DNA of 14,359 bases from Escherichia coli. Lineage in GTDB: Bacteria > Pseudomonadota > Gammaproteobacteria > Enterobacterales > Enterobacteriaceae. The notes beneath the pieces are model-generated. The model did not search any database. It saw only the letters and a program-made list of their open reading frames with translations, and was not told the origin of the DNA. Each line of letters starts with the position of its first letter. The stretch's first letter is position 1. The translations under genes were made by a program, and so were the position numbers. Below, in pieces: positions 1-14,359 of this stretch. The DNA lies in the NCBI RefSeq assembly GCF_003334315.1, contig NZ_QOWR01000078.1, one strand, 5' to 3'.

Positions 1-438
1 AGGCCGCAGTCGGTAACCTCGCGCATACAGCCGGGCAGTGACGTCATCGTCTGCGCGGAAATGGACGAACAGTGGGGCTATGTCGGGGCTAAATCGCGCC
101 AGCGCTGGCTGTTTTACGCGTATGACAGTCTCCGGAAGACGGTTGTTGCGCACGTATTCGGTGAACGCACTATGGCGACGCTGGGGCGTCTTATGAGCCT
201 GCTGTCACCCTTTGACGTGGTGATATGGATGACGGATGGCTGGCCGCTGTATGAATCCCGCCTGAAGGGAAAGCTGCACGTAATCAGCAAGCGATATACG
301 CAGCGAATTGAGCGGCATAACCTGAATCTGAGGCAGCACCTGGCACGGCTGGGACGGAAGTCGCTGTCGTTCTCAAAATCGGTGGAGCTGCATGACAAAG
401 TCATCGGGCATTATCTGAACATAAAACACTATCAATAA
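1..438 (+). CDS. insB: IS1 transposase InsB (InsAB' C-terminal part), 5'-truncated by the window edge
   Basis: Open frame 1 from base 1 to the TAA at 436..438; the ORF track gives 125 aa from the first internal ATG at 61, but the frame is open upstream to the window edge. Recognised as IS1 InsB. Confidence 0.93.
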
Positions 439-453
439 GTTGGAGTCATTACC
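1..453 (+). mobile_element. IS1: IS1 insertion sequence, 3' portion (window begins inside the element); right terminal inverted repeat ends at 453
   Basis: Translated frame 1 matches the IS1 InsB protein as I recall it ([36 protein letters not shown]...NIKHYQ). Positions 2..16 read GRSR-stop, matching the InsA C-terminus in the -1 frame relative to insB. The element ends ...AACACTATCAATAAGTTGGAGTCATTACC at 453, the characteristic IS1 terminal repeat. The same 453 bp occur reverse-complemented at 13907..14359. Confidence 0.95.
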
Positions 454-518
454 ATGCAGTCGATGTCACGGCAGGTGAAGTAACCGCTAACGCAACCTAC
501 GTGCTGGATTATAAATAA
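454..518 (+). pseudogene. ybgD: 3' remnant (about 21 codons) of a fimbrial major-subunit gene (ybgD-like) truncated by the IS1 insertion
   Basis: Immediately after the IS1 end, frame 3 reads AVDVTAGEVTANATYVLDYK-stop (TAA at 516..518). This resembles the conserved C-terminal beta-strand of chaperone-usher pilin subunits, and sits directly upstream of the usher, where the subunit gene lies in the E. coli ybgD-ybgQ-ybgP-ybgO arrangement. No start codon or N-terminal region is present. Confidence 0.55.
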
Positions 519-528
519 GTATTATTTT

Positions 529-546
529 GGCGGCATCATCGCCGCC
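529..546 (+). terminator. Short GC hairpin (GGCGGC-atcatc-GCCGCC) followed by a T/A-rich tract, between the subunit remnant and the usher; possible intra-operon attenuator
   Basis: Perfect 6-bp inverted repeat seen directly in the sequence; downstream is tttcataaaatattt. Subunit-usher intergenic attenuators are common in chaperone-usher operons (established knowledge). Assigning that function here is inference. Confidence 0.3.
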
Positions 547-568
547 TTTCATAAAATATTTATCAGGT

Positions 569-11759: not shown

Positions 11760-11796
11760 GTAGGCTGGATAAGGCGTTCACGCCGCATCCGGCATC
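11760..11796. repeat. REP element in inverted orientation relative to the first (BIME-like pair); a further partial REP-like segment at about 11805..11820
   Basis: GTAGGCTGGATAAGGCGTTCACGCCGCATCCGGCATC matches the complementary form of the REP consensus. Lies between the convergent genes dtpD and phr. Confidence 0.8.
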
Positions 11797-11821
11797 TGGG
11801 CTCGATTGCCTGACGCGTCTG

Positions 11822-13240
11822 TTATTTCCCCTTCCGCGCCGCCTCATACGCTGCCAACGTTTGTACTCTCGCTTCTTTGTGCTCGACTATCGGTTGCGGA
11901 TAATCCAGCGTCACACCTGCTTTCTGCGCCCACTTCCACGGCTCATGCACCACTTTCCCTGGCACATCGCGCAGTTCCGGTAGCCACTGGCGGATAAACT
12001 CGCCCTCATGATCAAATTTCTCGCCCTGGGTTGTCGGGTTGAAAATACGAAAATACGGCGCTGCATCGGTTCCGGTTGAAGCGGCCCACTGCCAGCCACC
12101 GTTATTGGCTGCCAAATCACCATCAATCAGCTGCGACATGAAATATCGCTCGCCTTCGCGCCAGTCGATCAATAAATCTTTCACCAGAAAACTGGCTGTA
12201 ATCATCCGTAGCCTGTTATGCATCCAGCCAGTGCTGTTAAGCTGACGCATAGCGGCATCAACAATCGGGTATCCCGTTTTGCCTTCCTGCCAGGCCTGTA
12301 AATGTGCGGGATTGCTCTGCCACTGTACACGATCCGTCCAGGCAATAAATGGACGATGTTTACACAACGAGGGGTGATACGTTATCAGGTGACGGTAAAA
12401 CTCGCGCCAGATCAGCTCATTAAGCCAGACACTACCGGCCCCACCGTCCAGCGCCTGCGGCTGTTCAGCCAACAAGCGATGCAAGCACTGGCGAGGCGAT
12501 AACCCGCCCGTTGCCAGGCTGGCCGACAAACGGCTGGTGCCTTCCACTGCCGGAAAATCTCGTTGTTGCTCATATTCTCCGGCACCGTTCTGGCAAAACT
12601 GGCGTAATTGCGCAATCGCCGCTTTTTCTTCCACCGGAAAATGCGCAGTATCGAAAGACTGACGAGGATAATTCAGCGTAATGGATGGCGCGGGCTTTAT
12701 CGATCCGCTACTACGAACTTTTGGTGCAGCGACGCACTCCGGCATCCCTTCCCGCAGCCGTTTCAGCCAGGCATTCTTAAAAGGCGTAAAGACTTTGTAC
12801 ATCTCGTGATTACCGGTCATCACCGCGCCAGGCGGCAGGATCACGCTGTCATCAAATCCTTCACACACCACGTTACGCAGCGTTCTCTCAACCTGCACAT
12901 CCCGCGCCCGCTCATTCACCTCATACTGATAGTTATAAAAAAGATGAGTAACGCTGTTTTCCGCGCACACCTGTTTAACTATTTCGACGCTGGCGACAAA
13001 GTCATCCACTTCACGGAACAATAAAGGAATACCTTTTTCCGTCAGCACGATTTGTAGCCCATTCAGTTGAGCATTGATAAGTTTAGCCTGACGCGGCGAC
13101 ATGTTATGCGCCGCCCACTGGCGTGGTGTAGCGATATACAACGCCAGCACGCGTGCAGACGAATTGCGGCAGGCGGCAGCCAGTGCGAGATTATCGTGCA
13201 GACGTAAATCCTGGCGAAACCAGACCAGATGGGTAGTCAT
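11822..13240 (-). CDS. phr: Deoxyribodipyrimidine photolyase (CPD photolyase), 472 aa
   Basis: Recognised as E. coli photolyase (MTTHLVWFRQDLRLHDNLALAAACRN...), with FAD-binding region motifs such as WREFY and GWMHNRLR. Confidence 0.95.
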   Translation of the reverse strand: MTTHLVWFRQDLRLHDNLALAAACRNSSARVLALYIATPRQWAAHNMSPRQAKLINAQLNGLQIVLTEKGIPLLFREVDDFVASVEIVKQVCAENSVTHLFYNYQYEVNERARDVQVERTLRNVVCEGFDDSVILPPGAVMTGNHEMYKVFTPFKNAWLKRLREGMPECVAAPKVRSSGSIKPAPSITLNYPRQSFDTAHFPVEEKAAIAQLRQFCQNGAGEYEQQRDFPAVEGTSRLSASLATGGLSPRQCLHRLLAEQPQALDGGAGSVWLNELIWREFYRHLITYHPSLCKHRPFIAWTDRVQWQSNPAHLQAWQEGKTGYPIVDAAMRQLNSTGWMHNRLRMITASFLVKDLLIDWREGERYFMSQLIDGDLAANNGGWQWAASTGTDAAPYFRIFNPTTQGEKFDHEGEFIRQWLPELRDVPGKVVHEPWKWAQKAGVTLDYPQPIVEHKEARVQTLAAYEAARKGK

Positions 13241-13746
13241 AAAACTCCTGAATGGCGCAAGTTAATCACACGCGGCCAAAGTTCGAAATAACGCTGCCCT
13301 GAAAGCCAGGCGTCAGGATAAAGCGCCATATAGTGTTTGATACGCATCAGCGGCGCAAGAAGTGGTTGCTCGCCACGGCGATAACTGTCGATAAGCGCAG
13401 CCAGCTGCTGGCGTTCTGTGGAATCAATATGCGGGCGAAAATAACCCTGAACGTGCATCAAAACATTGGTGTGATCGCGCGGGTTGGCGGGGTGAGAAAG
13501 CAAAACAACTACGCGTTGGCGGTACTGGTTGTAATAGTCATCCAGATTTTGCCACTGGTGAATATCAGCCACGAACGGGCCAAGTTTGCGGTACTCCGGC
13601 TGAGAATGCGCCAGAAAGACGAGTTTATAGCGGCTGTGATAATCGAGAAGCGCCCCGCGCGTTAAGCCATGTTCTTTCAGTCGATGTAACTCATGAAGGG
13701 CAAAGATACGGATTAGGGTGCTGTCATCAAATCGTTGTAGATTCAT
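13237..13746 (-). CDS. ybgA: DUF1722-family protein of unknown function, 169 aa, co-operonic with phr
   Basis: Recognised as E. coli YbgA (MNLQRFDDSTLIRIFALHELHRLKEHGL...). Its stop overlaps the phr start (ATGA, 4-nt overlap). AGGAGC Shine-Dalgarno upstream. Confidence 0.9.
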   Translation of the reverse strand: MNLQRFDDSTLIRIFALHELHRLKEHGLTRGALLDYHSRYKLVFLAHSQPEYRKLGPFVADIHQWQNLDDYYNQYRQRVVVLLSHPANPRDHTNVLMHVQGYFRPHIDSTERQQLAALIDSYRRGEQPLLAPLMRIKHYMALYPDAWLSGQRYFELWPRVINLRHSGVL

Positions 13747-13906
13747 TACTGCTCCTGAGCGGTTTACAGGAGTAAGTGTAGACGTTGAGAAATGATATTT
13801 GTGAAGTTAATCCTGTTGTAGCAGGACAAATTTACGAAAGCCTGCTCCCCGCAAGGACTGACGTCAGGTAGTTTCTAACCATAGCTGCCCTTTCTATTCA
13901 AACGTG

Positions 13907-14359
13907 GGTAATGACTCCAACTTATTGATAGTGTTTTATGTTCAGATAATGCCCGATGACTTTGTCATGCAGCTCCACCGATTTTGAGAACGACAGCGAC
14001 TTCCGTCCCAGCCGTGCCAGGTGCTGCCTCAGATTCAGGTTATGCCGCTCAATTCGCTGCGTATATCGCTTGCTGATTACGTGCAGCTTTCCCTTCAGGC
14101 GGGATTCATACAGCGGCCAGCCATCCGTCATCCATATCACCACGTCAAAGGGTGACAGCAGGCTCATAAGACGCCCCAGCGTCGCCATAGTGCGTTCACC
14201 GAATACGTGCGCAACAACCGTCTTCCGGAGCCTGTCATACGCGTAAAACAGCCAGCGCTGGCGCGATTTAGCCCCGACGTATCCCCACTGTTCGTCCATT
14301 TCCGCGCAGACGATGACGTCACTGCCCGGCTGTATGCGCGAGGTTACCGACTGCGGCCT
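13907..14359 (-). mobile_element. IS1: IS1 insertion sequence, 3' portion in inverted orientation (terminal repeat at 13907; element continues beyond the window end)
   Basis: Reverse complement of 13907..14359 aligns with 1..453 over the full length with three mismatches. Starts GGTAATGACTCCAACTTATTGATAGTGTT (IS1 terminal repeat). Confidence 0.95.
13922..14359 (-). CDS. insB: IS1 transposase InsB (InsAB' C-terminal part), 5'-truncated by the window edge
   Basis: Same protein as 1..438 except Ser to Arg at one residue (YAYDRLRK versus YAYDSLRK); frame open to the window end. Confidence 0.93.

Follow-up and report, generated by a model that had tools for sequence, protein, structure and literature searches.

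Composite transposons bounded by the insertion sequence (IS) IS1 include Tn1681, in which the two copies are inverted. In Tn9 they lie in direct orientation (cited in PMC12065110), and during the laboratory evolution of Escherichia coli MDS42, IS1 pairs gave rise to inversions, adjacent deletions and composite transposons, with 54 inversions recorded from 2.2 kb upward (Kanai et al., NAR 2025, PMC12065110). The element in that study, IS1-YK2X8, was placed in the IS-free MDS42 strain and left to spread on its own, and inverted pairs of it mobilised both the yohK-yehB locus and the pqqL operon. Here we describe a 14,359-nucleotide stretch of E. coli DNA (the window) that ends in IS1 on both sides, with the two copies inverted and 13,453 nt between them. 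As in Tn9 and Tn1681, two IS1 copies bracket DNA, and the inverted arrangement is transposition-competent in principle. However, the bracketed DNA is native and lies at its native locus, with no second copy in the collections searched, it exceeds the classical examples in length (13.45 kb), and no target duplication flanking the whole unit was seen.

We find it probable, at about 75%, that the window reflects two ordinary IS1 insertions, independent of each other and each at a recurrent target site, in an E. coli rich in IS1, and that the contig read here breaks off within the two copies. The stretch is native chromosome between gltA and rhsC, and both elements, each full-length and of a different common isoform, would have inserted in it independently and in opposite orientation. 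One would have entered ybgD, which encodes a fimbrial subunit, by simple insertion that duplicated the 9 bp ATGCAGTCG, and the other the H-repeat gene ybfD, close to its stop codon. The pair would provide 768 bp of inverted homology at a distance of 13.45 kb, from which RecA-dependent inversion or composite transposition could later arise. A feature of this kind is already known and is ordinary.

The two arms were recovered by a repeat search of the window as an inverted pair, 1-453 and 13907-14359, of 453 nt each and 99% complementary. Base-by-base comparison gave an identity of 99.3%, which over 453 nt far exceeds chance, with exactly three mismatches. At 78/14282 the left arm has C and the right A, and at 81/14279 they have T and C, both synonymous in InsB (Gly GGC/GGA and Tyr TAT/TAC, respectively), while T on the left and G on the right at 129/14231 distinguish Ser AGT from Arg AGG. 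The left arm (1..453, plus strand) comprises the last 145 InsB codons (1-438 including the stop) and the right inverted repeat (IRR; 431..453), which adjoins ybgD sequence; the right arm (13907..14359, minus strand) is the same 3' part in the opposite orientation, with its IRR at 13907-13929. Both IRRs face inward, end in ...GTTGGAGTCATTACC and are identical to the IRR of full 768-bp IS1 copies in complete genomes (L001-L005). The InsB frame is open in both arms for 145 uninterrupted codons to its natural stop, and PF03400 (DDE_Tnp_IS1) is assigned to a product identical to the arm InsB. In their terminal repeat, InsB frame and, on the left, probable 9-bp target duplication, the arms do not differ in kind from other members of the IS1 family, of which the window holds only the 3' 453 bp of each copy. 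The inner flanks, ATGCAGTCG at 454-462 and TCAAACGTG at 13898-13906, are unrelated to each other. A preliminary description of the window had reported inverted IS1 ends with the insB-proximal repeats inward, three mismatches of these types and unrelated inner flanks, and all of these points were reproduced here.

The arm length of 453 bp marks the end of the sequence and not that of the element. Because both window ends fall symmetrically at the same IS1 base, 3 nt past the A6C frameshift motif and at the point where full copies read ...TTAAAAAACTC followed by AGGCC, the window is very likely one whole short-read contig; its arms are very likely full IS1 copies cut by assembly. At least 18 contigs from unrelated NCBI draft assemblies start at exactly that base, with 453 bp of IS1 followed by unique flank. 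The 145-residue partial InsB is the product expected from a gene caller at such a contig edge and, used as an exact query, was present in 177 index blocks in its Ser form and 397 in its Arg form. Control products one codon shorter and three codons longer occurred in 390 and 764 index blocks, as common or commoner, ruling out the 453-bp cut as a uniquely recurrent boundary and identifying it as a typical assembly break inside IS1, in a part of the element where contig ends and scaffold gaps commonly fall. In a sibling draft assembly (L027), the left inverted repeat (IRL) and insA are found joined to the outer flank of ybgD.

For the left IS1, a simple insertion predicts an outer junction of ...GATAATGCAGTCG followed by GGTGATGCTGCC (IRL), and a broken gene encoding a 171-residue product, YbgD(1-170) plus Gly. 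This product was found exactly in 32 index blocks, gltA-ybgD'-IRL was read in at least 24 draft contigs, and the outer junction, gltA-ybgD(1-511)-ATGCAGTCG joined to IRL, is present in sibling draft assemblies. Among these, the contigs L027-L029 (about 29 kb) run from sucB through sdh and gltA to ybgD', ATGCAGTCG, IRL and insA, and are 100% identical to strain 2018-01-1CC across the comparable 6 kb. L027 extends 439 nt into IS1, overlaps window positions 1-125 at 100% and has the C78/T81 of the left arm, not the A/C of the right arm; assembly GCA_003334315.1 includes the outer left junction (L029) as well as contigs that stop at the IS1 base of the window ends (L008). The inner copy of ATGCAGTCG (454..462, plus strand) is read in the window and the outer copy in L027-L029, two different sets of records; taken together, the two junctions would give the left IS1 a direct 9-bp duplication and reference-like synteny outside. 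These sibling drafts speak, by proxy, against the rearrangement at the left IS1 that the preliminary description had considered. The left IS1 most probably entered ybgD by simple insertion, duplicating 9 bp, and the genome of the window presumably shares this outer junction. An adjacent deletion from an IS1 upstream of ybgD, as in S171-1, was also considered for this junction and rejected, as the S171-1 copy is of the other isoform and the duplicated sequence that a simple insertion leaves on the outer side is on record. The IS1 separates ybgQ, ybgP and ybgO from the operon promoter, and inactivation of ybgD with polar silencing of ybgQPO is the likely outcome.

The right IS1 lies 10 nt upstream of the stop codon of ybfD, a gene of the H-repeat/ISAs1 family, of which the window retains the stop codon and those 10 nt (13894..13906, minus strand, by annotation comparison). 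Its inner flank, TCAAACGTG (13898..13906, plus strand), is a candidate copy of a target-site duplication whose partner was not seen; a simple insertion would place IRL next to TCAAACGTGAAATCAAT... and the rest of ybfD. The finished genome of FORC_031 has an identical right inner junction, with a different outer flank (CACACAACT) and a truncated rhsC. As its haplotype differs from that of the window (19 mismatches in the last 2 kb), the FORC_031 junction represents an independent event: it shares with the window the junction between the ybgA side and IRR, but its ybgD is free of the insertion and some 5.5 kb are missing on the IRL side. Further IS1 copies occur close by in other strains. In MB51 an IS1 of the other isoform sits 1 bp away amid normal synteny and is flanked by its own duplication, CAAACGTGA; the copy in W444 is at CGTGAAATC, within a paralogue of the ISAs1 sequence, and strain 600029 carries an IS1 at a distance of a few tens of bp from the window's right site. 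ECZP248, which is near-identical to the window, has an IS1 in the same orientation 836 bp further out, and over 453 nt this copy matches the right arm at 100%.

Two of these genomes show additional IS1-associated changes around rhsC. In FORC_031 (L001 17101-21864) the RhsC frame runs into IRL and ends ...DNSCVGDAANLLI, an IS1-associated deletion truncating an Rhs toxin gene. In W444 (L005 21818-22585) an IS1 beside rhsC has unrelated 9-bp flanks and no target duplication, which appears to indicate a further IS1-associated rearrangement in its rhsC-ybfC region.

The ybgD site has also been occupied by an engineered element. Record L026 (GCA_047157205.1, BAAFXD010000001.1) is a 3.95-Mb contig, K-12 by sequence (100% and 99.986%), that carries at 10500-13604 an engineered IS1 consisting, in order, of IRL (27 nt), a fused transposase, TetR, a GFP-family gene and IRR (40 nt). 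Its IRL adjoins ...ATGCAGTCG in ybgD, in exactly the position and orientation of the natural lineage, and on the IRR side 853 bp are deleted, part of ybgQ included. The matching design suggests that this element is the IS1-YK2X8 of the MDS42 study (PMC12065110). An element of that architecture thus sits at the ybgD target of the window, but whereas the laboratory element is engineered, hyperactive and housed in an IS-free K-12 strain, the window has a natural IS1 in a non-K-12 lineage.

At the H-repeat/ISAs1 3' end (TTCAAACGTGAAATCAAT), IS1 is found at least 4 separate times within 5 bp, in distinct strains or paralogous copies (window 13894-13906; L031 6090-6110; L005 18720-18735; L001 17090-17100), a recurrence that suggests a local IS1 hot spot. 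Both window sites have thus been targeted more than once independently. We propose tentatively, and at somewhat less than even odds, that IS1 has precise reusable targets here, namely one phosphodiester in ybgD, used by wild and engineered IS1 alike, and the 5-bp H-repeat/ISAs1 3' stretch TCAAACGTGAAATC, used at least 4 times. Were this so, IS1 would find in H-repeat ends a landing pad specified by sequence or structure, and deletions and inversions driven by IS1 could be predicted to occur at the rhsC-ybgA border. The AT content near the IS1 targets (53-55%, against 48% in the interior) is uninformative.

The two arms belong to different isoforms. The left arm (C78/T81/T129, InsB Ser) is identical to copies labelled 'IS1A family' by the Prokaryotic Genome Annotation Pipeline (PGAP; WP_094096600.1), and the right arm (A/C/G, InsB Arg) to copies labelled 'IS1B family' (WP_095033700.1). 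IS1 copies 100% identical to the left arm are present in L003, L005, L008, L009 and L013-L015, and to the right arm in L002, L004, L017, L019-L022 and L025; both isoforms occur in many unrelated assemblies, and together within the single genomes L003 and L005. Among 33 IS1 copies compared, a sample biased by the way in which they were retrieved, the three-site haplotype was CTT in 15, ACG in 12, CTG in 5 and ACT in 1. Recombinant haplotypes (CTG or ACT) were seen in L023, L024, L016, L036, L005 22133-22585 and L003 24328-24780, pointing to gene conversion or recombination among IS1 copies. The earlier argument that the arms are distinct isoforms and not one recently duplicated copy stands in that each arm equals a different common isoform. 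It is weaker than it appears, since recombinants exist and the three single-nucleotide polymorphisms (SNPs) lie 324-375 nt inside a repeat of what is probably a short-read contig, and isoform identity is a soft marker. We also considered intramolecular replicative transposition, which would generate an inversion together with IS duplication, and rejected it given that the isoforms differ, the left copy appears to be flanked by a direct duplication of its own and the inner flanks are unrelated.

The reading as two independent insertions takes the genome of the window to have the left outer junction, the right IS1 to be unrearranged and the arms to be full-length, and several observations weigh against it. 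The window ends within both IS1 copies, its own outer flanks lying beyond it. The left junction, inner or outer, is present in 0 of 5,426 complete E. coli genomes, and its exact pattern had 0 matches in viral, metagenome and species-representative genome collections. Contigs begin about equally often at nearby positions of IS1, making the cut point typical of assemblies and not unique. For the right IS1, the products of a simple insertion (YbfD plus VMLPTY, 259 residues, and an internal-start product of 166 residues) have no record, a weak point, and the right junction of FORC_031 comes with a deletion of about 5.5 kb, from ybfD to the rhsC 3' end, and no duplication. These last two observations would also fit a right IS1 that reached its junction by adjacent deletion, the TCAAACGTG hot spot being the target of an intramolecular transposition, or by IS1-IS1 recombination, removing ybfD or more. 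The truncated rhsC outside the FORC_031 junction favours such an origin, as does the same-isoform IS1 of ECZP248, which lies beyond an intact ybfD fragment and from which a deletion would give the same junction. However, MB51 provides a simple insertion with a 9-bp duplication only 1 bp away, and nothing can be concluded from the missing protein products, since ybfD is a multi-copy H-repeat and short-read contigs break there, fragmenting assemblies. Our estimate leans modestly towards simple insertion of the right IS1, with deletion or recombination a serious minority possibility; the latter would be a variant of the reading as two independent insertions and not a contradiction of it.

Other explanations concern the segment as a whole. 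It is unlikely that the 13.45-kb segment was inverted by homologous recombination between the IS1 copies, or that the population is polymorphic in this respect, and polymorphism of the source strain for such an inversion is less likely than the reuse of targets proposed above. Inverted homologous repeats are present at both breakpoints, and RecA can act on 768-bp repeats at this spacing of 13.45 kb; inversions bounded by IS1, of at least 2.2 kb, arose in laboratory evolution (PMC12065110), and the inner junctions would stay the same after such an event, which is compatible with the window. Yet in L027, whose phasing bears on the window through a sibling assembly not proven to be the window's genome, the IS1 on the ybgD 5' outer flank has C78/T81, the isoform of the window's ybgD 3' inner flank, as in the non-inverted state, and the locus is rearranged in no complete genome. 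It is extremely unlikely that the unit IS1-ybgQ...ybgA-IS1 is an active composite transposon with a history of transposition or of capture elsewhere, past movement being largely refuted. Two copies of the same IS do bracket the cargo, and inverted IS1-YK2X8 pairs can mobilise the DNA between them (PMC12065110), but the segment lies at its native locus beside native left-hand neighbours, with no second or non-native genomic context found. A single target duplication around the whole unit is disfavoured by the duplication that the left IS1 seems to have for itself. The plasmid collection contained no true plasmid copy of the interior, its matches being confined to megabase records (94.6-96.5% identity) that are evidently chromosomes; phage matches consisted of repetitive extragenic palindromic (REP) sequences only (85 bp), with no phage copy of the interior, and the junction pattern, as stated above, was without matches in the viral, metagenome and species-representative collections. 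The inversion or composite mobilisation raised in the preliminary description is accordingly possible in principle for an inverted IS1 pair, with no sign of use at this native, K-12-collinear locus. Finally, the contig could be chimeric or mis-joined, its IS1 ends not being two real copies at these sites. The ends are symmetric within a multi-copy repeat, and phasing of the three distinguishing SNPs at their depth in that repeat relies on read pairs. Such an artefact is nevertheless very unlikely, as the right junction is exactly reproduced in a finished genome, the left-junction partner occurs in at least 24 independent draft contigs, and each arm matches a common natural isoform exactly, with no novel mosaic.

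Several PLSDB entries (CP099174.1, NZ_OL790696.1, CP061270.1, NZ_CP134663.1, NZ_CP141089.1 and others) are 'plasmids' of 0.28-4.9 Mb that carry the whole ybgQ-ybgA region, and by their content look like chromosomes, or fragments of them, mislabelled as plasmids.

Two independent insertions at this spacing are unremarkable for such a genome. Close relatives have at least 36-40 IS1 places per chromosome, and by simple arithmetic about 40 copies on 4.7 Mb would by chance yield about four neighbour pairs within 13.5 kb, half of them inverted. The inverted pair leaves the region open to a small inversion or to being lost, as is normal for IS1-rich E. coli. The ybgD insertion marks a lineage seen in draft assemblies only (32 index blocks, against 0 of the 5,426 complete genomes) and probably silences the cryptic ybgDQPO fimbrial operon. 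More generally, a contig with long terminal inverted repeats may be chromosome between two copies of one IS and not a discrete mobile element.

The interior is native E. coli chromosome in native gene order. Its 13,453 bp align to K-12 MG1655 at 99.77% identity, gapless and collinear, and differ from strain 2018-01-1CC by one SNP, at position 3741, which is synonymous in ybgP and also leaves unaltered the ybgO product called from 3765. Gene content agrees with the initial description: the last 18 codons of ybgD, then ybgQ, ybgP, ybgO, abrB, nei, pxpA, pxpC, pxpB, ybgI, dtpD, phrB, ybgA and the last 13 nt of ybfD. The ybgD remnant, left where IS1 broke the fimbrial subunit gene, comprises the 18 codons and the stop (454..518, plus strand; window 454 corresponds to L003 6001, within ybgD at 5499-6065). 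By the L003 annotation (offset 5547), ybgQ (569-3025), ybgP (3040-3768) and ybgO (3765-4826) follow on the plus strand as parts of one chaperone-usher fimbrial operon, with the Pfam domains Usher and PapD on their products. Intact housekeeping genes in K-12 order occupy 4978..13746 by K-12 alignment, with abrB and dtpD on the plus strand and nei, pxpA, pxpC, pxpB, ybgI, phrB and ybgA on the minus strand. The window's protein alleles are common, that of PhrB being found in 2,110 index blocks and that of YbgQ in 9,385.

Within the fimbrial operon, 64 of the 101 mismatches between FORC_031 and the window fall in the first 3 kb (ybgD-ybgQ; window 464-3500), and the gltA-ybgD stretch is 92.6% identical, which points to a recombined fimbrial-operon allele in FORC_031. 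Between the convergent genes dtpD and phrB lies a cluster of palindromic repeats of the REP/bacterial interspersed mosaic element (BIME) type (11685-11815), which accounts for the short plasmid and phage matches. The only Rfam match in the window, ES036/CssrF (11717-11759, minus strand, 75 bits), falls in this cluster.

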